DNA of 64,000 bases from an uncultured Gemmatimonadales bacterium (GTDB taxonomy: Bacteria > Gemmatimonadota > Gemmatimonadetes > Gemmatimonadales > GWC2-71-9): positions 120,282 to 184,281 of the forward strand of contig CAWCVB010000003.1 of the NCBI GenBank assembly GCA_963798915.1. Reading direction: 5' to 3'. The notes under the pieces were generated by a model. The model was given only the letters and a program-made list of their open reading frames with translations, was not told where the DNA came from and ran no database searches. Shown in pieces: positions 24,743 to 34,409 of this stretch (position 1 is its first letter; each line of letters starts with the position of its first letter). The position numbers and the translations under genes were made by a program.

Positions 24743-24783
24743 ATTTTACTCCCCGTTGACAATCCCGCTGCATATTGGTGCTC

Positions 24784-27700
24784 ATGACTGCGCGTTTTCA
24801 GCTCAGGTGCCTGGGTGAGCCGGCGTTGCTGCGGGCTGACGGCCAGGCCGTCCGGATCAAGGTGCGGAAGCACACCGCGCTGCTCATCTATCTGGTGCTG
24901 GAAGGCGACCGCCGCCACCGGCGTGAGAAGCTGGCCGAGTTGCTGTGGCCCAACTTGCCGGATGCCGATGGGCGGCACTCGGTCGCCACCGCCTTGACGT
25001 CACTGCGGGCGGCTTTCGGGCAGGAGGTCCTGGACAGCAACGGCAACGGCGTGCGCTGGAGCTTTCCCCACTTGGACCTGGACCTGCACCGGCTGCAGAA
25101 CGGCCAGATTCTGGGCGATGAGGTCACACCACCGCTGGATGTGGCAGCCTTCCTGGATGGTTTCGAGGTGCCCGACGCCGCTGGCTTCATGCTGTGGCGC
25201 GAGCAGCAGCGCGCCCGCTGGCATCCTTGCATTCGGGACGGCCTGGTCCTCCTCATGGACCGGTGCCGGCGCACCGGCGACAGCCAGCAGATCGAGCAGC
25301 TGGCCGATCGCATGCTGGCACTTGACGAGCTCAGTGAGGAGGCAGTGCGGGCCAAGATGGAGGCCCGTGCCTTTGCCGGCGACCGGGTCAACGCCCTCAA
25401 GATCTTCGAAGCGTGGCGCGAGCGGTTGCAGGAAGAACTCGGCGCCGTCCCGTCGGAGCGGATTGATGGAATGGCCATGCGTCTCCGGAAGCGGAGCTGG
25501 GAGCGTGCGACCCAGCACGCCATTTCGCCGGTGCGCATTGACCAGTGGAAGGACCGCCCCTTCATCGGCCGGGGACGCGAGCACCAGCAGTTGTATGAGG
25601 CGTGGGAGCGCATGCAGCGCGGTGACGCAGGTCATGCCCACGTCCTGGGCGAGTCAGGCATCGGCAAGACGACCCTGGTGGAGCGCCTCTCCACGGCCGC
25701 GGGGCTGGAAGGTGCCTCAGCCGCTCGGGTTCAGTGCTACGACATGGAGCGGGAGATACCCTACGCGGCCATCGGTGGCTTGGTGCGGAGCCTGCTCGAG
25801 CGGCCCGGCGCCAGCGCCGCGTCGCCCGAGGCACTGGCCGACCTGGCACAGGCGGTGCCGGAGATTCGGCGCCGCTTCCCCAACATTCCCGCCGCCTCCG
25901 ACAGCATCGGCGAAACTGCCCGCCTTCGGATCGCCGAGGCCCTGCATGAACTGGTCAGTGCCGTGGCCGACGAGCATCCGCTGGTGCTGGTCATCGACGA
26001 CCATCATCTGGCCGACGACGCGAGCCTGGCCCTGTTGCATCACCTGCTCCGGCGGGTAAAGGGCCAGAAGGTGATGATGGTCTTCATCGGACGCGCCAGC
26101 GAGCTGGGCCAGTCACCCCACGCGGTGCGGCTCCGCGACAACTTTTCCCAGTTCGGCGCGATCACCCTCGAACTGACCCCCATGACGCCGGCGGAATGCG
26201 ACCGGCTGGTTACGGCGTTGTGTCCGGAGCCCGATCGCCAGCCCAATGCGGCCACGCGACGGGCGCTGATTCGGTCCGCGCGCGGCTATCCGATGGTGCT
26301 CGAACTGCTCTGCCAGGACTGGGAGGAGCGGGGGGAGCGCTCGTTGGCGCTGGCACTGGATGCGATGACCATCCAGCCCGACTCGGCGGCCGCGCCCGCC
26401 GAAACCTTCCGCCAGCTGTACGAGCGGATTGCGCAGTCGCTCGATCCAGGTGCGCGCAATGTGCTCAATCTCGCGGCCATCCTGGGTCATCGGGTCAACG
26501 ACATCAGCATGTATTCTCTCGCCGACCTGTCGCTGGGCCAGACGATGGGCGGCATCTCCCGGCTGACCGAGCTTCGGGTGCTCCGGGACGGCGGCGACGG
26601 GCTGGAGTTTGTCAACGAACTGATCCGGACCCACGCCTACATGGGCGTGCCCAGCGCCATGCGGCGGGTCCTGCATGCGAGCATCGCCCAGCGCCTCATC
26701 GACAGTGAGCAGGAGGGCACCGAGGTGATGGGGCTCGAGATTGCCTGGCATTGCATTCGTGGCGGGCGGGTGGAGGAGGCAGTGCCCTACCTGCTGCGCG
26801 GCGCCCGACAGGCGCTGCAACGCGGGGCACCGCACTCGGTTGAGCTGGCGCTCTGTAGTGCCACGGCAGTGCTCAGCACAGCTTCCGACCGGGCCTCTGC
26901 CGCGTTGCTAGTAGTCGAGTCTCTGCAGGAACAGGGGGAATGGGATCGCTCTTTGGTTGAGCTCGAAACACTAGAGACGCACAGCATCACTTCTTTTGAA
27001 TGGATGAGAGAGGCCCAGATTTGTGCAGCTAACTCAGCGCTCTACAGATACGATGAAGCACAGGCCATCACGATGGCGGAGCGCCTCGTTGGCGCGATTG
27101 CGCAGGTAGATGACCCGTTCACCAGCGCCGCATTGGCTAGGGCAACATCGGGCCTAGTCCTCTCGACGCGAAGTCCGGTCCTGGCCGCAAATACACTCGA
27201 AGCTCTAGCTTGCTTCGATTCGAAAATGCTTCAAAGCCCGGGGCGGCAGGACTGGCTACTGGCTCAACTGAGAATTCGGCTGATGGTCGGGGAGACTGAC
27301 GAGCTAGAGCATTCACTCAAGTCGCTTTCGCTCGAAATGGTGGAAACAAAGACAAGGAGCAGCTCCGCAGCAATGCTTGCGATCGGCCGGGGAGGTTTCT
27401 GCTGCGCTACTGGTCGCTACCAAGAGGCGTTAGATCACTTCGACAGCGCCTTGAAGATTGCAATCGAACTTGGTAATAGCTCGCTGATCGCTTCGGCGAA
27501 TGCGAATCGAGCGCTTTGTTTTGGGATGCTTGGTGACTTTGTCCAGCAGGTGCTTTGTGCGAGCGAAGCCTTAGCGCAAGAGCGTCACGTCACCGGCTCC
27601 TATCGGCAGATATTGGCGCGCTATCATGTGGCAGTCGGCAACGCAATGGGTGGTCGACAATCTGAGGCTTTGTCGGCAGCGAGAGGGCTGGAGGGCTTGG

Positions 27701-28179
27701 CTCTGGAGAGTGCGCCAGCGTGGGTGCAACAGGTGCGATTGTTGTTCCTCGCCGATGCGTTCTGGCTGGCAGGCAGACGCCGGGCGGCGATGAAGGCAGC
27801 GGCACTTGGGGTGACGGGCGACTTTGCGCTGCCTTTGGCCACCGGATTCACAGGAACACACGCGCGGTGGCTAGCGCGAGTAACCGACACATCAGAGTCC
27901 GCTCACCGTTACTTAGCGCAACTCGATATTCGATCTGATGAGTTCGACTTGATCGATCGAGCTGAAATAGCCTTGGCTCGATGGATCCTTTCGGAGAGGA
28001 TGGAGTTGCCACATTCCGCCGCCGCTTACGATGAGGCTACGGGGCTCCTGCGGTGTTTGCCCGATGCTGCCACGCAGTTCTTCGCACGCCTTGAGTTTGT
28101 GCTGCAGCCTCGGAGTCGCGTCTCTGCATCGGCTAGGAAGAGCGCGGCGTCAGATAACTCTCAGCGCTTATCCGACTGA
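24784..28179 (+). CDS. BTAD/SARP-type transcriptional regulator with AAA/STAND ATPase and TPR-like C-terminus
   Basis: N-terminal LRCLGEP..ALLIYL..REKLAELLWP; BTAD segment ELSEEAVRAKM; Walker A GESGIGKT; Walker B LVIDD; helical repeats. Confidence 0.88.
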   Translation: MTARFQLRCLGEPALLRADGQAVRIKVRKHTALLIYLVLEGDRRHRREKLAELLWPNLPDADGRHSVATALTSLRAAFGQEVLDSNGNGVRWSFPHLDLDLHRLQNGQILGDEVTPPLDVAAFLDGFEVPDAAGFMLWREQQRARWHPCIRDGLVLLMDRCRRTGDSQQIEQLADRMLALDELSEEAVRAKMEARAFAGDRVNALKIFEAWRERLQEELGAVPSERIDGMAMRLRKRSWERATQHAISPVRIDQWKDRPFIGRGREHQQLYEAWERMQRGDAGHAHVLGESGIGKTTLVERLSTAAGLEGASAARVQCYDMEREIPYAAIGGLVRSLLERPGASAASPEALADLAQAVPEIRRRFPNIPAASDSIGETARLRIAEALHELVSAVADEHPLVLVIDDHHLADDASLALLHHLLRRVKGQKVMMVFIGRASELGQSPHAVRLRDNFSQFGAITLELTPMTPAECDRLVTALCPEPDRQPNAATRRALIRSARGYPMVLELLCQDWEERGERSLALALDAMTIQPDSAAAPAETFRQLYERIAQSLDPGARNVLNLAAILGHRVNDISMYSLADLSLGQTMGGISRLTELRVLRDGGDGLEFVNELIRTHAYMGVPSAMRRVLHASIAQRLIDSEQEGTEVMGLEIAWHCIRGGRVEEAVPYLLRGARQALQRGAPHSVELALCSATAVLSTASDRASAALLVVESLQEQGEWDRSLVELETLETHSITSFEWMREAQICAANSALYRYDEAQAITMAERLVGAIAQVDDPFTSAALARATSGLVLSTRSPVLAANTLEALACFDSKMLQSPGRQDWLLAQLRIRLMVGETDELEHSLKSLSLEMVETKTRSSSAAMLAIGRGGFCCATGRYQEALDHFDSALKIAIELGNSSLIASANANRALCFGMLGDFVQQVLCASEALAQERHVTGSYRQILARYHVAVGNAMGGRQSEALSAARGLEGLALESAPAWVQQVRLLFLADAFWLAGRRRAAMKAAALGVTGDFALPLATGFTGTHARWLARVTDTSESAHRYLAQLDIRSDEFDLIDRAEIALARWILSERMELPHSAAAYDEATGLLRCLPDAATQFFARLEFVLQPRSRVSASARKSAASDNSQRLSD

Positions 28180-28192
28180 ACTCCCTACAGAT

Positions 28193-29593
28193 TCAAACCT
28201 TTCGATTACCTCGCCAAAAGGAGGGCGCCGGCCAGGCAACCCGCCTGGAACGCTGAGGTTGGTCCAGGCCCGCTTCCGCAATGGCGGTATTACCGGCGAT
28301 CATGCGGCGAATCGTGACTGAGCCGATAACCAAGTCGACCAATTCCGGATCAAACTGCGTACCACGACATTTCTGCAATTCGGAGATCACGATATCAAGG
28401 CCCAGTCTTTTGCGGTATGGCCTGTCAGTAGTCATTGCGTCTACCGTGTCACATACTAGTATGATTCTCGACCCAAGCGGAATGGACTTTCCCGCAAGTC
28501 CGCTCGGATAGCCTTGCCCATCCCAACGCTCATGATGGTGGCGGACAGAGTCCTGAACAAAGCCACGGAACTTCGAGATAACGCCTACCAGCTCGGCACT
28601 CCTTGTCGAGTGCGTTTGCATCAATGCTGTTTCCTCTGGGGTAAGGCGCGCCTCCTTGCGTAACAGAGGAGCGAATTCCTCGTGAATCTTTCCGACGTCG
28701 TGAAGCAATGCAGCAGTCTCGACTTGCTCGGCCTCACGAACCGCGAGTCCCCGCTCCATAGCGATTAGCCGCGCCAGTTCACTCACACGCACCGAGTGGC
28801 CAGAGGTGTACGGATCTCGTGCTTCAATAGCTTTGACCATCAGCTGCAGCAGTTCCTGGCCGCTGTGCTGCAGTTGGTGATAAAGGCCGTACACGTAACG
28901 AACCATGATGATCGGTGGAATAACGAAGAATAGTCCGTACGGTCCAAAGCCCCAGGTGCGTTGCGAGTACGCGTAGGCCCAAGCTACTCCCATGGCCATT
29001 ACACTCGCGCCGATGTCGTAGCCAAGAATGCCGCGGGTGTTCAAGCTCCAAACATCACGAAATTGTCGATCAGAGCTGAAAGCCACCGCGACGCTAACGA
29101 GAGCAGAATTTATGAGAAAGTAAAGCGCCGCGAATACAAAGAAGAGCCCGATGTCCCGCTGAACATCAGCGACCAGCAGCGTAGCGAATCCGCCCCCTAA
29201 GTAGGCCGGCGGAATAGAACCGCCAAGCAGGCGGTAAACCAAGAGCGAGACTGTGACTGACAGAACTCGCTGAGCAACGTTAAAAAGGGTCTTCTTTTTT
29301 GCCGTCCCTGCTAGTGCGTGATTTATTCCGACCGAAACTCCGGCCGTCACGCCACCCCAGAATGCTCCGAAGAGCATCGCGCTGGAGATGTGCATAACAA
29401 ATGAGACGGAACCGCGAGCGGAAACACGAAGTGGAATGCCAGTCTTGTCAAGCAGAAATGCGATTACAATGAAGGTTCCGATTTCCCAATAGCCCGGGAA
29501 GATCGGCGCGACCTGAAAGGATAAGACCATTGCTCCCGCCGCCGCCGCGACGGCAGCGACTATCAGCAGGTCAACCTTCGAGTCGCGTGGCAT
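28193..29593 (-). CDS. HD-GYP cyclic-dinucleotide phosphodiesterase with N-terminal multi-TM sensor
   Basis: EARDPYTSGHS, LLHDVGK, HHHERWDGQGYP, DAMTTDRPYR; about 7 hydrophobic helices; low GC. Confidence 0.92.
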   Translation of the reverse strand: MPRDSKVDLLIVAAVAAAAGAMVLSFQVAPIFPGYWEIGTFIVIAFLLDKTGIPLRVSARGSVSFVMHISSAMLFGAFWGGVTAGVSVGINHALAGTAKKKTLFNVAQRVLSVTVSLLVYRLLGGSIPPAYLGGGFATLLVADVQRDIGLFFVFAALYFLINSALVSVAVAFSSDRQFRDVWSLNTRGILGYDIGASVMAMGVAWAYAYSQRTWGFGPYGLFFVIPPIIMVRYVYGLYHQLQHSGQELLQLMVKAIEARDPYTSGHSVRVSELARLIAMERGLAVREAEQVETAALLHDVGKIHEEFAPLLRKEARLTPEETALMQTHSTRSAELVGVISKFRGFVQDSVRHHHERWDGQGYPSGLAGKSIPLGSRIILVCDTVDAMTTDRPYRKRLGLDIVISELQKCRGTQFDPELVDLVIGSVTIRRMIAGNTAIAEAGLDQPQRSRRVAWPAPSFWRGNRKV

Positions 29594-29622
29594 AGAAGGT
29601 ATAGGGTGGGGACCCTTTTAGC

Positions 29623-29703
29623 TTAGACCCAGTCTTGGCCGTCAGCCATTAACAGCTTGGCGACAAAATTGACCATCGCCGAAACGACGTCGATAAGCAA
29701 CAT
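29623..29703 (-). CDS. 26-aa peptide MLLIDVVSAMVNFVAKLLMADGQDWV, candidate signalling peptide precursor
   Basis: Own translation (below the ORF track cut-off); SD GAAGGGGGGTGA 5 nt before ATG; ends 29 nt before the HD-GYP start. Confidence 0.75.
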   Translation of the reverse strand: MLLIDVVSAMVNFVAKLLMADGQDWV

Positions 29704-29894
29704 GAGCGTCACCCCCCTTCGGGTACTATCCGATACTTCGGGAAGTGGCGAGCCTCGCTATGGCCCTCCAGACGCTCCGCTTTTTGGTCCGTCCGCTCGA
29801 TTCCGCTTTTGGTCTTTCGACCTGGGCCCCCGACCCGTGAGTTCCTTTCGTCAACCAGCGAGTGAACCTGCCGCCCGCACCAGTGCCTGCCGCG

Positions 29895-30695
29895 CTACTC
29901 CGGCCGGCGCATCTCCGTCCACCGGTTGGTGGCATCCAGCACCGCAAAAACCGCCGCCCGCTCGGCGCTTTCCTTGATCTCCGCCGAGCCGGTGAGGAGC
30001 AGGGAATCCCGCCCCCCCAGCCCCTGCACGCCCACGAACGCAAACTGCCGCTCGAACGCCTCCACGATGCGCGCGCCTTCCAACCCCAGCGCCACCGTGG
30101 CACTCACGTCCGCCAGCAGGCGATCGAGGACGGTGACCGCCGCCTTGGCCGCAGCCTCGACCCGGCTCCTCGGCGTGTCACTCGATTCCTCCGAGGCCAT
30201 TTCGGTCTGGCTCCGATAGCTGAGCGTCACCTGGATGCCGATCCGGTGGGGCCGCTGTCCAGGGGCCACCGTCAGGTTCTCGAACAGGACCGCACGGCGC
30301 AGCACCTGCTCCCGCACCGCCGTCTGCTCCAGCGCCTCCAGCGGCCTCACCTCCGCCGTCTGCGCCACGCTGATCTTCCTATGATCCACCCGAAGTCCGA
30401 GTTGCGCCAGCAGCGCCGACTCGATGTTCCGCACCAGTTGCTTGGGCTGCAATCCCGACTGCGCCAGGATGTGCACCTCGCTCACCTCACCCAACGGGGT
30501 GGTCACCACCCGCGCCGAGAGAATGCCCTCGAGACTGGTGAGCAGGTTCTCGGCCCGGCGTACCCCCCATGGATCCGGAATGGACTCGTTCGGAGTCTTG
30601 CCCGGATTGGTGGTCGCGCCCTGATGCCTGGCTGAGTATGGTCCCGTCACTGGTGCTCCGTATTCGGGTAATTCGCGCCACTTGTCGTCGGTCAT
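29895..30695 (-). CDS. Hypothetical protein; C-terminus resembles the LeuA allosteric/dimerisation domain
   Basis: EGILSARVV..SEVHILA..PKQLVRNIESAL..DHRKISVAQ; C-terminal LTGSAEIKESAERAAVFAVLDATNR. Confidence 0.8.
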   Translation of the reverse strand: MTDDKWRELPEYGAPVTGPYSARHQGATTNPGKTPNESIPDPWGVRRAENLLTSLEGILSARVVTTPLGEVSEVHILAQSGLQPKQLVRNIESALLAQLGLRVDHRKISVAQTAEVRPLEALEQTAVREQVLRRAVLFENLTVAPGQRPHRIGIQVTLSYRSQTEMASEESSDTPRSRVEAAAKAAVTVLDRLLADVSATVALGLEGARIVEAFERQFAFVGVQGLGGRDSLLLTGSAEIKESAERAAVFAVLDATNRWTEMRRPE

Positions 30696-30742
30696 CGGTC
30701 TTCAGTCGTCAAACGCACCCGACGACCGAAGACTGACGGCCA

Positions 30743-32428
30743 TCATGCCACCACGTTTCGCCCGGCCGCCTTTGCACGGTACAACGCCCGGTCGGCCGTG
30801 ACCAGCAGGTCACCCTCGCCCGGCTGCTTGGGATCGAACTCGGCAATGCCGCAGCTCACCGTGATGAGTCCCGACTCGTAGCCCAGCCGCCGGCCCACCC
30901 CTTCGATGCCGGCCCGCAGCGCCTCGGCCACCCGGGTGGCACCGGCCAGGTCGGTCCGGGTCAGGATTACCACAAACTCGTCGCCGCCGTACCGGGCCGC
31001 CACGTCCGAGGCACGCACCGCATTCCGGACCTCCCCCGCGGCAGCCCGCAGGATTTCGTTGCCGGCCTCGTGCCCGTAGGTGTCGTTGACCTGCTTGAAT
31101 CGATCGAGATCCAGGAAAAGTACAGCAAAGGTCTCGCCATTCCGGCGGGATCGCTCGATTTCGAAGGACAGCCGGTCCCGGAGCACCCGGTAGGTGGACA
31201 ATCCGGTCAGGAGATCCACCGCGGCGGCCTTCTGGGCCTCCTCAGCCCGGCGCTCCTGGTACGGCAGGCACTGCCGGAGCGTGGCCCGGCCGGCGGCGGC
31301 CACTTCGGCAAATTTTTGACAGGTGTCAAATCCGCATGCACCGCAGTCCCACGGCCGACCGTTGGGCCCCAGCCCGATGGCACCCAGGATGGCGGTCACT
31401 GTCTCGCTGTCCGGTTGCATTCGCTCAGGCCGGATGTCAAAGACCGCGCCGACGCTCGCCACCACGGTGCGATCGAGCACCGGCGTCGGCGCCCGCGGGG
31501 GCTCGGTGCTGGCGATGAGCGCCCGGCGCCAGAAAAGCTGGTCCTTGGGCCCGGCGAGCGGGTGGTCCAGCAGCCCCTCGTAGGAGAGGATATCCACGAA
31601 CCCCAGGTCCATCCGGTCCACGCTCACCGCCCGGGCAATGGCCGGGAGCTGGTCCAGCCCGCGCACCATGCGGAAGCGCCCGCTCGCCTGCTTGAACTCT
31701 TCCAGCAGTTCGAGCGGCATGCCGCCGGCCGCGCTCAGGTGCCGGCGCCGCTCCTCGGGCACCCGATTGAACCAGGTAGGCTGGGCCAGGATGTTCACCC
31801 CCCGCGCCCGCAGCACCTCTTCCAGGTCACCAAAGGTGATCGCGGCATCCAGGTCAGGCGCGCCCTCGGCGGCATTGACCCCGGCATGAACGATCTGCAA
31901 CCCCGGCCCGAACCGAACCCGAAGGTGGCGGGCCTCGGCCACCGACGGTGTCGTGACAGGAGCGAGATAGGGAATCAGTTCTGGGTACTGGGCGCGAATG
32001 GTGTCCACCACGACCGGGTCGGTGGAACGAATGAGAGTGCCCCAGGGTTCATCCCGCCACAACTTGAGGTATTCGGCGGCAACCAGCTCGTCGCCGATGA
32101 CGCCCCGCGTGACGGTCCGGAACCCCGCCTCATAACAGCCGTTGACCACCTGTTCCGGCGTGGCGGGGTAGAAATGGGCCACCATCTCGGGGCTGAGGAT
32201 CAGGATACCGTCGCCCTGCGCGGCAATGGCCAGGGCACGCCCGACCTCGCCGTTGACCCGGACCGCGTCGTGCGGGCACACGGAGTAGCACTGGCCGCAA
32301 CGGATGCACAGTTCGTCAACCACCTGCAACAGCGGAGCCTCGCCGGCCACCGCGATCGCATCGGTGGGGCAGTCACGGACGCATGCCAAGCATGCGACAC
32401 ACGATTCCGCGTCGATCACGAAGTGCAA
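30743..32428 (-). CDS. Diguanylate cyclase with 2x[4Fe-4S], [FeFe]-hydrogenase-like and FeS domains
   Basis: CVACLAC..CP, CIRCGQC..CP, DCGACGFDTC..CLPY; DLDRFKQVND, RASD I-site, RYGGDEF. Confidence 0.9.
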   Translation of the reverse strand: MHFVIDAESCVACLACVRDCPTDAIAVAGEAPLLQVVDELCIRCGQCYSVCPHDAVRVNGEVGRALAIAAQGDGILILSPEMVAHFYPATPEQVVNGCYEAGFRTVTRGVIGDELVAAEYLKLWRDEPWGTLIRSTDPVVVDTIRAQYPELIPYLAPVTTPSVAEARHLRVRFGPGLQIVHAGVNAAEGAPDLDAAITFGDLEEVLRARGVNILAQPTWFNRVPEERRRHLSAAGGMPLELLEEFKQASGRFRMVRGLDQLPAIARAVSVDRMDLGFVDILSYEGLLDHPLAGPKDQLFWRRALIASTEPPRAPTPVLDRTVVASVGAVFDIRPERMQPDSETVTAILGAIGLGPNGRPWDCGACGFDTCQKFAEVAAAGRATLRQCLPYQERRAEEAQKAAAVDLLTGLSTYRVLRDRLSFEIERSRRNGETFAVLFLDLDRFKQVNDTYGHEAGNEILRAAAGEVRNAVRASDVAARYGGDEFVVILTRTDLAGATRVAEALRAGIEGVGRRLGYESGLITVSCGIAEFDPKQPGEGDLLVTADRALYRAKAAGRNVVA

Positions 32429-32578: not shown

Positions 32579-34087
32579 TCATTCCAGCGAATAGGCTTTG
32601 ATCTTCCGGTACAATGTTCGCTCCCCGATCCCCAGCTGCTCTGCGGCCCGGCGCCGGTTTCCCCGCGCCTCCCGGAGCGCCGCCCCGATCGCCGCCTTTT
32701 CCACCTCTTCCATGGTCATGCCGGAGCGGTAGACGACGTCCTCATCGGTGTCCTGCTCGGCAATCTGGGACAGCTCGCCGACGATCGGGTTATCGGACAG
32801 CTCGATGACTCGGACCCGTGGGGGCCCATCGTCCAGCCGGCGGCGCAGTTCCTCTACCTGCAGGCGCAGGTCCACCAGGTTCCGGAGGATGAACTCCAGT
32901 TCCTGACTCCCCATGCCATTCTCCCGGATCATCTGGGGCACGCGCACCGGCAGCAGTGCCGGCCCCTCGAAGATGTCGGGCGGGATGTCGCTGGCCCGGA
33001 TCTCGGTGCCCGGCGCCAAAACCACCATGCTCTCGATCAGGTTGCGAAGCTGGCGGACGTTGCCGGGCCAGGGAGCGTTGACCAGCCGCTCCATGGCTTC
33101 CGGCGCAATGCCACGGAAGGTACGGTCATGCAGGCGGGCAAATTCCCGCGTAAAGCGGCGAACCAGCAGCGGGATATCGCCCCGCCGCTCGCGCAGCGGC
33201 GGCAGATAGATGTTGAGCACGTTGAGCCGGTAATACAGGTCGTCACGGAATTCGCCCAGCGCCACCAGGTCCTTGAGCGCCCGATTCGTGGCCGTGACGA
33301 CCCGGACATTGACCCGGATCGGCTGGGTGCCTCCCACCCGGAAGAAGCTGCGGCTCTCCAGCACGCGGAGCAGCTTCACCTGCACGTTGAGCGGCAAATC
33401 GCCGATCTCGTCCAGAAAGATCGTGCCGCCATCCGCCAGCTCGAACCGCCCGAGCCGTCGTTCGGCCGCGCCGGTAAAGGCGCCCTTCTCGTGGCCAAAG
33501 AGTTCGCTTTCGAGCAACGACTCCGGCAGCGCTGCGCAATTGACCGCGATGAAGATCTTGCCTCGCCGAGGCGACAGGTCATGCAGCGCCTTGGCCACCA
33601 GTTCCTTCCCGGTGCCACTCTCGCCCTGGATGAGCACCGTGCTGGTGACCGGCGCCATCTGCTCGATCTTGACCAGCACTTCCTGGATGGCTTCGCTCTC
33701 GCCGGCAATGCCGGTGCGTTCCTGAAGCTGCCGCCGCTCGATCAGTCGGCGGGCCAGGCCGGTCAGCTCATCGGCTGACGCGGGCTTGAGCAGGACGTCG
33801 GTGGCCCCCAGGCGACTGACCCGGTCAGCCCGATCGGAATCCGTCGACTCCAGCAGCGCCAGCGTGGACGCCTCGGCCTCGCGCGCCAGTGCCATGAGGT
33901 GACGGGCAGGCGGCTCGTAGAGCGCGCCGGTAAGGATGATCAGCTCAGGGTGCTCCCGCCGGAGCGCGCCTGGTGCATCATCGAGCGAACTGACCATTGC
34001 CGTGCTGAACCCGGCCGCCTCCAGCGCCGCGTTGGCGCGGACGGCGGTTTCGAGATCGTCCATCGTGATGAGGATCTGGCTGGCCAT
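32579..34087 (-). CDS. Sigma-54-dependent activator (NtrC family) with atypical receiver
   Basis: GESGTGKE, GAFTGA, FLDEIG, WPGNVRQL, C-terminal Fis-type HTH. Confidence 0.93.
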   Translation of the reverse strand: MASQILITMDDLETAVRANAALEAAGFSTAMVSSLDDAPGALRREHPELIILTGALYEPPARHLMALAREAEASTLALLESTDSDRADRVSRLGATDVLLKPASADELTGLARRLIERRQLQERTGIAGESEAIQEVLVKIEQMAPVTSTVLIQGESGTGKELVAKALHDLSPRRGKIFIAVNCAALPESLLESELFGHEKGAFTGAAERRLGRFELADGGTIFLDEIGDLPLNVQVKLLRVLESRSFFRVGGTQPIRVNVRVVTATNRALKDLVALGEFRDDLYYRLNVLNIYLPPLRERRGDIPLLVRRFTREFARLHDRTFRGIAPEAMERLVNAPWPGNVRQLRNLIESMVVLAPGTEIRASDIPPDIFEGPALLPVRVPQMIRENGMGSQELEFILRNLVDLRLQVEELRRRLDDGPPRVRVIELSDNPIVGELSQIAEQDTDEDVVYRSGMTMEEVEKAAIGAALREARGNRRRAAEQLGIGERTLYRKIKAYSLE

Positions 34088-34100
34088 GGGGGAACTTAGG

Positions 34101-34136
34101 CGGGAAGACGGGAAGACGGGAAGACGGGAAGACGGG
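34101..34136. repeat. Octamer array (GGGAAGAC) x4
   Basis: Visible directly; inverted copy inside topA at 53786-53803. Confidence 0.9.
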
Positions 34137-34154
34137 CAGAATCCACAGCAGCGC

Positions 34155-34409
34155 GTCACTCTGAGCGAAGCGAAGAGGCCGGAGACCGAAACTGCGAGCA
34201 CGTCTTGTACGCACTGCCAGCGCATGGACCATCCGGTCCTGGCTAGAGCCCGATACGCAATCCGAGAAACACGCTTCGCCGCCAGATGGCGCGAGGTTCA
34301 TGATTTTCAGGAAGCTCATGCCGATGCGCCCAGGACGACGGGGTGACGCCGAGCTCTCCTGACATTTCCAAGTCTCTGCTCTTCGGCCGCTGCGCGGGCT
34401 CGGAGTGAC
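34155..34409. repeat. REP-like inverted pair GTCACTCTGAGC..CGAAGAG / CTCTTCG..GCTCGGAGTGAC
   Basis: Complementary ends bracket about 200 nt of non-coding DNA. Confidence 0.65.

Follow-up and report, generated by a model that had tools for sequence, protein, structure and literature searches.

The 64,000-nucleotide (nt) window analyzed here, a stretch of contig CAWCVB010000003.1 from an uncultured Gemmatimonadales bacterium, carries on its minus strand a micro-ORF (open reading frame) of 26 codons plus TAA at 29623..29703, flanked by a gene for a hypothetical protein of 266 amino acids (aa; 29895-30695) and the gene for a 466-aa membrane HD-GYP protein (28193-29593). The micro-ORF, the RNA in which it is embedded and the HD-GYP gene that it precedes, together referred to as the module, are the subject of this study. 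The ATG of the micro-ORF occupies 29703-29701 and the TAA stop 29625-29623, and the translation, MLLIDVVSAMVNFVAKLLMADGQDWV (26 aa), is a hydrophobic peptide with the C-terminus DGQDWV. Upstream, GAAGGGGGGTGA at 29720-29709 is followed by CGCTC and then by the ATG; the Shine-Dalgarno (SD) sequence GGGGGGTGA (29709..29717, minus strand) is therefore 5 nt from the start codon, and it doubles as the 3′ strand of helix P3 and the beginning of helix P1 of the RNA structure described below. An in-frame GTG lies at 29712, three codons 5′ of the ATG. The gap between the micro-ORF stop and the HD-GYP ATG is 29 nt, and the two ORFs are in different frames. A sequence-only reading of this DNA had proposed a minus-strand ORF at this position, with a strong SD at 5-nt spacing, between a hypothetical gene and a membrane HD-GYP gene; its coordinates, its 26 aa and its SD were confirmed, and ORFs and profile scans agree with the gene arrangement. 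An exact look-up of ten peptide sequences in a collection of ~15 billion proteins found nine of them absent and the remaining one matching a JGI ‘hypothetical protein’; the micro-ORF is essentially unannotated in protein collections.

The gene at 28193..29593 (minus strand) encodes a protein in which a MASE9-like domain of 7-8 predicted transmembrane (TM) segments (~residues 1-240) is joined to an HD-GYP domain. The latter matches HD_5 (PF13487) over profile positions 2-170 of 170 (E 1e-32, 113.6 bits against a cut-off of 27.2). The match to MASE9 (PF20972), with 31.5 bits in one scan and 36.1 bits in a second against a gathering cut-off of 24.3, spans only profile positions 52/76-161 of 203 and marks a divergent member of that family. 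A Kyte-Doolittle scan of residues 5-237 gave six strong and about two weaker hydrophobic segments, in line with the ~7 TM helices read earlier from the sequence, and the HD, HHE and GYP motifs noted at the same time are intact (HD298, HHE353 and GYP361) and invariant in 64 orthologues. From the family match and these motifs, the protein is a putative cyclic di-GMP (c-di-GMP) phosphodiesterase. Its gene is present as a single copy in the window's genome. The idea that the peptide is a split-off first helix of the MASE9 domain was dropped; the HD-GYP protein already has 7-8 segments and the frames differ, and no search for a fused form was made.

The HD-GYP protein was searched for in 60 related genomes and 37 loci were fetched, the window's own included; one of them (L012) has no upstream DNA, leaving 36 for the micro-ORF count. 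An equivalent of the micro-ORF is present in all 36 orthologous loci, its start (ATG, in a few cases GTG) preceded in every one of them by GGRGGTGACGC, with rare variants, at a distance of 2-5 nt. The reading frame remains open in 35 of the 36 loci and the changes in peptide length are of whole codons. At locus L036 (G044:C5), the micro-ORF stop is lost, leaving 79 codons open, and the HD-GYP frame has a TGA and a TAG; here micro-ORF and HD-GYP gene are apparently decaying jointly. Independently of the peptide, a pattern for the leader RNA was scanned over one genome per species (185,579 species) and matched at least 120 loci. Among the 120 matches listed, 49 have a small ORF and a downstream HD-GYP gene, 26 have the 266-aa gene on the upstream side and under 700 nt of DNA downstream, 8 are too short for judgement, and 37 are chance matches in GC-rich unrelated genomes (Streptomyces and others) with no ORF and no flanking gene; no true match among them with sufficient downstream DNA lacks the HD-GYP gene. 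The true matches listed are Gemmatimonadota by record title, bar a few bins labelled otherwise. Of 31 genomes from a distant family within the class, 6 have a homologue of the TM domain, and all six loci have the 266-aa gene, AAAGGAGGTG, a hydrophobic ORF of 20-24 codons ending in W-stop, a G-run and the HD-GYP gene. The recurring SD and short, nearly always Trp-ended ORF by which the sequence-only reading could be checked in homologous loci were thus found in the relatives, in the pattern-scan loci and in the distant family alike.

Across the phylum, 144 of 401 sampled genomes contain the exact RNA pattern, a lower bound given that known carriers with variant motifs escape it, and a reversed-pattern control gave 2 matches. 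By family the counts are 79/166 (f1), 54/93 (f2), 5/5 (f3), 2/7 (f4), 2/30 (f6), 1/70 (f7) and 0/29 in the others; the 60-genome and the 401-genome tallies each take in one unpublished genome (G023 and G189, respectively), on which no other result depends. Where an extra gene (HTH-REC, helix-turn-helix and receiver) separates the leader from the 266-aa gene, the micro-ORF stays beside the HD-GYP gene. A sub-clade (L017, L020, L048, L054, L079, L098, L099, L110 and L116) has ~0.7-0.9 kb of extra DNA that separates the leader from the 266-aa gene, and its leader, micro-ORF and HD-GYP gene remain adjacent; the insert of L017 and L020 holds a ~200-aa ORF that resembles an excisionase-type HTH plus receiver protein, as judged by eye from the translation. 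In the window's genome, the RNA leader is single copy. Across the loci compared, these results show a micro-ORF that is kept across the class Gemmatimonadetes and lies always immediately 5′ of a MASE9-like HD-GYP gene. Judged by these counts, the module is widespread in soil Gemmatimonadota; Gemmatimonadaceae loci carry it, and cultured Gemmatimonas relatives seem to do so as well.

Pooling of the loci gave 101 unique peptides, with ATG as the start in 91, GTG in 8 and TTG in 2, and with TAA, TAG and TGA as the stop in 39, 39 and 23, respectively. The GC content at codon positions 1, 2 and 3 of the micro-ORFs is 0.53/0.44/0.68, to be compared with 0.63/0.44/0.67 in the HD-GYP genes, and the 99 nt upstream of the micro-ORFs are flat (0.59-0.61) and show no periodicity. 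T at codon position 2 reaches 0.39, similar to the HD-GYP genes. For 14 independent close pairs, the ratio of non-synonymous to synonymous differences (pN/pS) is 0.315 in frame vs. 1.43 and 1.59 in the other two frames, and the differences at codon positions 1/2/3 number 46/31/84. Periodicity, pN/pS and conservation show the 26-codon ORF to be, as far as comparative sequence data can tell, a genuine gene under purifying selection.

The peptides are 16-29 aa long, with two longer ones from upstream starts, and consist mainly of A, L, F, V, S, G, W (6.9%) and I, with very little Pro (0.2%) or Cys (0.6%). Trp stands within the last three residues in 90 of the 101; the tally by position gives 69 with it second-to-last and 22 with it last, 91 together, and an acidic residue is found four positions before the last W in 55, giving a [D/E]xxxW tail. 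Mean hydropathy (GRAVY, grand average of hydropathy) is 0.97 at a mutual identity of ~20%, and no signal-peptide n-region occurs in the 101 peptides. The hydrophobic leader and short Trp-containing tail that had been described for the window's peptide are thus real, and the Trp-end is kept in most of the family. The Trp codon was considered as a part of the long-range helix P0 described below and rejected as such; it is paired in only ~30% of loci, and therefore RNA pairing is not the cause of the conserved Trp. This bears on the idea that the ORF is a chance open frame within a structured RNA that codes for nothing, of the riboswitch or small-RNA kind, which we find hardly credible. The surrounding RNA is clearly structured and conserved, and the SD-like sequence belongs to conserved helices, as such an RNA would have it, but the three-base periodicity is found in the ORF only and not in the leader, pN/pS exceeds 1.4 only out of frame, the frame is kept open with length changes of whole codons, and the Trp is retained without the help of pairing.

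Alignments show that ~145 nt 5′ of the micro-ORF ATG are conserved as non-coding sequence. In 5′-to-3′ order, a G/C-rich element is followed in this leader by a small hairpin that co-varies, by three AGCGGAG-like direct repeats and by a three-way junction. In the window, where all elements are on the minus strand, the hairpin GGTCGAAAGACC lies at 29811-29822, followed by the first two repeats at 29791..29807, as defined from alignments (repeat 1, AGCGGAA, 29801-29807; repeat 2, AGCGGAC, 29791-29797), and by repeat 3, AGCGGAGC (29774-29781), which falls within the junction region. Repeats 1 and 2 are spaced by 10 nt in 58 of 85 sequences. The junction itself (29704..29782) was derived from minimum free energy (MFE) folds and pair counts. 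Its helix P1 (29771-29777 with 29704-29710; GAGCGUC:GACGCUC) abuts the start codon, P2 is a hairpin (29762-29769 with 29747-29754) with the loop ATAGCGA, (C)RUAGCGR in the family, and P3 (29740-29746 with 29711-29717) holds an anti-SD, CACTTCCC, and pairs CACUUCCC with GGGAGGUG, the SD.

MFE folds of 27 leaders of the window's subtype, at -33 to -46 kcal/mol, agree on P1, P2 and P3. When the named structure is laid on a 52-sequence alignment, 92.3% of cells are paired vs. 38%–53% with the 3′ strands slid by 1-3 columns, a control that is somewhat favourable since the structure was derived from the same sequences. Among the 52 sequences, 7 of the 8 pairs of P2 and 4 of the 7 pairs of P3 show compensatory changes, and P1 is nearly invariant, with one GC-to-CG double change. 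Two leader subtypes are misaligned in a raw 34-sequence alignment, from which RNAalifold recovered no more than 3 pairs, and it was replaced by pair counting on the 52-sequence subtype alignment. In the other, Gemmatimonadaceae subtype, GCG-GA-GCC-AA-CC would pair with GG-GA-GGU-GA-CGC, and the tandem G.A/A.G is invariant in 49/49 sequences, a near-absence of variation that neither proves nor refutes pairing. This step, within the helix that would hold the SD, is a k-turn- or loop-E-like motif and, as such, a candidate protein-binding site. Loci of the Gemmatimonadaceae type (for example L031, L050 and L071) also have a conserved GACU after a variable hairpin. The agreement of folds and compensatory changes shows a conserved three-way junction in which the micro-ORF SD is predicted to be base-paired.

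An Rfam cmscan of 27500-31500 on both strands gave no match at E up to 1, the c-di-GMP-I and -II riboswitches included. A sigma-70 promoter scan of 27800-30900 found no sites, and terminator-like sites in the same interval are not above the shuffled expectation. A reading of the P2 hairpin sequence as a sigma-54 -24/-12 element was dropped, the stem co-varying as RNA, and CsrA was set aside as a binder of the GGA-containing repeats, PF02599 not being found in the 85%-complete genome. The repeats suggest that a protein or an alternative pairing could act as the trigger of the structure.

A second, long-range element encloses the micro-ORF. Over the 40 nt 5′ of repeat 1, the leader is complementary to the spacer that separates the micro-ORF stop from the HD-GYP ATG. 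In the window, the 5′ strand of this helix, P0, lies at 29823..29847, directly ahead of the small hairpin, and its 3′ strand at 29594..29616, in the 29-nt spacer (both minus strand), with a predicted duplex energy of -26.5 kcal/mol. Over 59 loci, cognate strands form duplexes with a mean of -30.1 kcal/mol vs. -22.0 for non-cognate partners and -19.8 for shuffled spacers (Mann-Whitney p ~1e-17, related loci not being independent), and the cognate partner ranks in the top 10% at 35 of the 59 loci from the 5′ side and at 31 from the 3′ side. Some loci with quite different sequences, L083, L052 and L070 among them, have 20-22 continuous pairs. P0 has a median of 20 pairs, with a core that spans +9 to +24, counted from the stop codon's first base, and is paired in 67%–91% of loci, and it ends a median of 7 nt before the HD-GYP ATG. 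A GGAG, GAGG or AGGA core was found upstream of only 6 of 68 HD-GYP genes, which shows that most of these genes have no recognizable SD of their own. The HD-GYP initiation region is thus predicted to be paired, and a ribosome that finishes the micro-ORF would come within range of the paired strand. This RNA structure, which the sequence-only reading had missed, is predicted to sequester both the micro-ORF SD and the HD-GYP start region. Since the structure would hide both, a role in translational coupling in cis is likely to be at least part of the function.

A ribosome covers roughly a dozen nt 3′ of its A site and unwinds the mRNA while moving, and therefore its arrival at the micro-ORF stop should free the HD-GYP start region. 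The module can accordingly be pictured as an RNA-gated unit of two cistrons, a structured leader followed by the micro-gene and then by the membrane HD-GYP gene. Some input, a ligand or a protein, would open the junction at P3 and P1; ribosomes would then translate the micro-ORF and, at its stop, invade P0 and expose the HD-GYP start, so that peptide and enzyme would be produced together. HD-GYP translation should then depend on translation of the micro-ORF, which in turn should depend on the opening of P3 and P1. The released hydrophobic peptide with its [D/E]xxxW tail would stay in the membrane of its producer and bind the MASE9-like TM domain, either as a subunit or as a modulator that acts allosterically on c-di-GMP hydrolysis, much as MgrB or SafA do with PhoQ. 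We favour this reading, tentatively and with considerable reserve: a micro-protein that is gated by RNA, coupled in translation to the enzyme and a partner of its MASE9-like membrane domain.

The strongest competitor keeps the coupling and dispenses with the partner. A purely cis-acting leader or arrest peptide, in which the micro-ORF only controls HD-GYP translation and the released peptide is functionless, seems to us rather unlikely. By this mechanism, [D/E]xxxW(x)-stop would slow termination, perhaps with a small molecule in the exit tunnel, and the paused ribosome would keep P0 open. The 3′ strand of P0 follows right after the stop, its core being at or just past the reach of a terminating ribosome, a whole peptide of 16-29 aa would fit the exit tunnel, purifying selection is compatible with this mechanism too, and precedents exist in the ermC/cat leaders, TnaC and SpeFL. 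On the other side, hydrophobicity is kept at ~20% identity, the N-terminal parts included, and an arrest motif needs none; the stop codon is unrestricted, there is no conserved Pro, and the prediction of a complex with the TM domain (below) is weak but not zero. Hydrophobicity that persists at such low identity is, by its pattern, the likely signature of a segment that partitions into the membrane and not of specific tunnel contacts.

The comparison with known leaders is close in several respects. ermC/ermB, the cat/cmlA leaders, classical coupling, TnaC and SpeFL likewise have a short ORF with a strong SD before a gene with a paired initiation region, and the paired strand lies where a ribosome finishing the leader ORF can reach it. 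The module differs from them in that its sequestering strand is distal and 5′, with a ~20-bp helix enclosing leader and ORF, in that the SD of the leader ORF is also locked, in a three-way junction, amounting to control in two tiers, and in that its peptide is uniformly hydrophobic. The W12/D16/P24 pattern of TnaC is not seen in the module peptides; among the 101, a C-terminal Pro pattern of this type does not occur, and the acidic residue lies four positions before the W and not after it.

For the partner role of the peptide, a complex of the TM domain (residues 1-245) with the peptide was predicted from 64-row alignments for each partner. The interaction prediction score from aligned errors (ipSAE) was 0.39 (runs 0.42, 0.37 and 0.39) vs. 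0.02 for the best control, with a partner pLDDT (predicted local distance difference test) of 65-66 and at least 88% of contacts shared between runs, which the tool rates as ‘weak support’. The set on which the tool was calibrated holds no chain of less than 30 residues; of its 157 solved complexes 116 reach the mark, and of its 215 mismatched pairs 2 do. At scores up to 0.60, where only 18 solved complexes pass, both of the passing mismatches are found. The authors of the MASE9 study proposed ligand binding within the membrane, in the portion of their preprint available to us (bioRxiv 10.1101/2021.11.05.467447). The sequence-only reading had taken the peptide for a ligand or membrane modulator of the HD-GYP sensor, and this fares unevenly: the linkage is strict and the complex prediction speaks weakly for an interaction, and the part of the proposal that casts it as an exported signal is not supported.

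Several observations weigh against a membrane-bound partner. The complex score is weak, a hydrophobic helix may dock on any TM bundle, and the controls were unrelated natural 26-mers and not matched hydrophobic peptides. Thirty of the 101 peptides are only 16-21 aa long, too short for a helix that spans the bilayer, and an uncharged run of at least 18 residues is present in only 14 of 99. The SD of the micro-ORF is locked in structures of -33 to -46 kcal/mol, and its translation may be rare. Finally, conservation of the peptide is anchored at the stop codon, which fits a motif for nascent-chain or termination stalling equally well and is a further point for a peptide that acts in cis. Small membrane proteins of other systems offer a mixed comparison. 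As in the pairs MgrB-PhoQ, SafA-PhoQ, PmrR-LpxT and MgtR-MgtC, a hydrophobic product of less than 50 aa is encoded near, or in the regulon of, a polytopic membrane protein whose transmembrane region it is proposed to bind; for the module, the score of the predicted binding is weak. Unlike in those systems, the presumed partner is a MASE9-like c-di-GMP phosphodiesterase and not a histidine kinase or transporter, many of the peptides (those of 16-21 aa) are too short for the bilayer, and the gene is, by our prediction, translationally coupled to that of its partner within a dedicated RNA structure.

The micro-ORF and HD-GYP gene form a block that diverges much faster than the flanking 266-aa gene, called ‘up’ in the following. 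Between genomes of the same genus, the 266-aa protein is 95% identical with a synonymous divergence (pS) of 0.33, whereas pS of the HD-GYP gene is saturated (0.74-0.88) and the protein identity is 71%–94%, the TM domain being the most divergent; nucleotide identity steps from ~0.89 to 0.65-0.75 at the block. GC at third codon positions (GC3) is 0.56-0.80 in the HD-GYP genes vs. 0.70-0.99 in the 266-aa genes and is lower in the HD-GYP gene at all 33 loci measured for both. In the window, GC drops from 0.68 to 0.55, and the block at ~26800-29800 takes in the HD-GYP gene together with its downstream DNA, both lower in GC and GC3 than the 266-aa gene. In two metagenome-assembled genomes (MAGs) of the same genus, the contigs break off within the leader or within the micro-ORF's first codons (L173, G002:C335; L174, G009:C75). 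An absence of the HD-GYP gene from these two MAGs was considered and rejected, the contig ends marking an assembly break, which possibly reflects strain-level variation that starts there.

Such divergence is one of the features that recall pheromone loci. According to this explanation, the peptide is exported or released and sensed by the membrane domain of the HD-GYP protein, a signal from cell to cell that is read as c-di-GMP hydrolysis, and we regard it as improbable. Linkage of peptide and receptor is strict, the C-terminal Trp is reminiscent of ComX and of short hydrophobic pheromones of the XIP type, the TM domain diverges most within the block, and the contig breaks in the two MAGs bring pherotype loci to mind. 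The fast divergence could have other causes, such as low-GC3 genes, weak expression or recombination. Against a released signal, Pfam scans of 17 ORFs of at least 150 aa in 14-44 kb and of 5 locus proteins found no exporter, processing protease or peptidase, prenyltransferase, radical-SAM (S-adenosylmethionine) enzyme or other enzyme for RiPPs (peptides made on the ribosome and modified after translation) within ~14 kb. The agr- or ComQXP-like export suggested earlier is not supported by this neighborhood, where the sequence-only reading itself had seen no obvious export or processing gene. The same scan found ATP synthase genes, a MoxR ATPase, a BTAD-AAA-TPR regulator, the GGDEF protein, a sigma-54 activator, protein kinases, metabolic genes and one M1 peptidase 10 kb off. 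Furthermore, the peptides lack a signal-peptide n-region and are poor in Cys, the Gemmatimonadota are reported to be Gram-negative and a released peptide would have to pass the outer membrane, and the mRNA architecture indicates co-translation in the producing cell.

Set beside ComQXP, agr and ComS-XIP, the module has in common a short precursor gene next to a polytopic receptor, a Trp near the C-terminus and a fast-diverging block. Unlike ComQXP, it has no polyprenyl synthase or transferase domain in the scanned ORFs and locus proteins, and the output of its receptor is HD-GYP, with no HisKA or HATPase. Unlike agr, it has no AgrB-like gene in the scanned ORFs and lacks the thiolactone Cys. 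In contrast to both, its RNA architecture implies co-translation in the same cell. A bolder combination, in which the Trp-ended micropeptide is an intramembrane MASE9 ligand, peptide and sensor diversify together as allele pairs like pherotypes and serve as a self-recognition or quorum signal, and the gating is by a new class of RNA switch that responds to a ligand or a protein, appears to us similarly improbable.

The hidden SD and the long-range pairing also recall type I toxins. A toxin-like membrane peptide whose mRNA is kept translationally inert, as with hok, tisB and aapA1, by fold-back of its 5′ and 3′ ends and a hidden SD, and which merely sits beside the HD-GYP gene, is in our view very improbable. 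Like hok-type mRNAs, the module has a small hydrophobic ORF, a strongly structured 5′ untranslated region that pairs the SD and long-range pairing of 5′ and 3′ sequences around the ORF. Unlike them, it is single copy and vertically conserved across the class, always coupled to the same downstream enzyme gene and in strict synteny with ‘up’, which is not the distribution of a patchy or mobile element. The 3′ strand of P0, moreover, covers the HD-GYP start region and ties the two genes together functionally. No antisense RNA gene was seen at the module, no search aimed at one having been made.

For an RNA-gated micro-protein that partners the MASE9-like domain, the protein encoded by ‘up’ (29895..30695, minus strand) would be a candidate trigger, by position and fold only. 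The gene is always upstream of the module and has no Pfam or NCBIfam match; its more than 3193 homologues are all named hypothetical and none has a Pfam match. Most of them begin ~16 codons after the start of the longest ORF in the window. An AlphaFold2 model (pLDDT 85.6) shows disordered residues 1-44, a ferredoxin-like domain and a LeuA/CMS-type (citramalate synthase) regulatory domain. The ferredoxin-like fold of residues 41-114, the N-terminal domain, is a common one, with Z ~8-9 to unrelated families, and tells little. The C-terminal domain (134-261) has Foldseek matches to LeuA with E 4.5e-6 to 5e-4 and aligns with the LiCMS regulatory domain over 109 residues (VIA Z 9.1, root-mean-square deviation 3.1), and in the model it thus resembles the Leu/Ile-binding regulatory domain of LeuA and citramalate synthase.

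Upstream of ‘up’ lies a gene for a GGDEF diguanylate cyclase (30743..32428, minus strand, by Pfam) with two 4Fe-4S ferredoxin motifs, a domain like the large subunit of Fe-only hydrogenase and a putative Fe-S cluster domain ahead of the GGDEF domain. According to tblastn, 37 loci of the window's subtype have this gene 5′ of ‘up’, but none was observed in loci of the Gemmatimonadaceae subtype. The gated phosphodiesterase may form one circuit with a redox-sensing cyclase. The GGDEF gene is itself directly preceded, on the same strand, by the gene for a sigma-54-dependent response regulator (32579-34225, minus strand; REC-like N-terminus, Sigma54_activat and HTH_8). On the other side of the module, a 1134-aa BTAD-AAA_16-TPR regulator (SARP/LuxR-like STAND; 24775-28179, plus strand) converges on the HD-GYP gene, and the GC content of its gene falls from 0.69 to 0.55-0.60 in the last third.

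In the literature searched (full text, subscription journals being largely outside), no micro-ORF or RNA motif before MASE9/HD-GYP genes was found to be described. The nearest thematic precedent that we found, as far as the available portion of that paper goes, is a set of small membrane-associated proteins behind c-di-GMP riboswitches in Clostridioides difficile (PMC13724677), which share with the module the gating by a structured 5′ RNA and the connection to c-di-GMP signaling. According to the same portion, they differ from it in having a class I c-di-GMP riboswitch, transcription termination, a role in sporulation and genes in multiple copies (PMC13724677), whereas the module RNA has no Rfam match and the micro-ORF is single copy and stands in an operon with the HD-GYP gene. 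Two principles, each known already, come together in the module: the unmasking of a downstream start by a leader ORF, and a small hydrophobic protein whose gene accompanies that of a membrane sensor. What sets it apart is the RNA gating in two tiers, with a distal 5′ strand that encloses the ORF, and the presumed partner, a MASE9-like HD-GYP protein. On the comparative evidence, we regard the module as real, conserved and undescribed, its architecture as shown in the alignments and folds, and the coupling and the role of the partner as what we infer from that architecture.

It is important to understand what the membrane domains of c-di-GMP enzymes respond to, and for those of the MASE type we know of no ligand or input. 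Only one MASE9 protein has been characterized, and it was poorly expressed, according to the portion of the preprint available to us (bioRxiv 10.1101/2021.11.05.467447). The module offers a testable candidate for a MASE9 partner, a peptide of 16-29 aa that would be made in step with the enzyme, and a conserved structured RNA of ~145 nt that appears to gate both cistrons. If the improbable reading of the peptide as an intramembrane ligand were true, it would mean a peptide signal in a Gram-negative phylum that is read directly as c-di-GMP hydrolysis.

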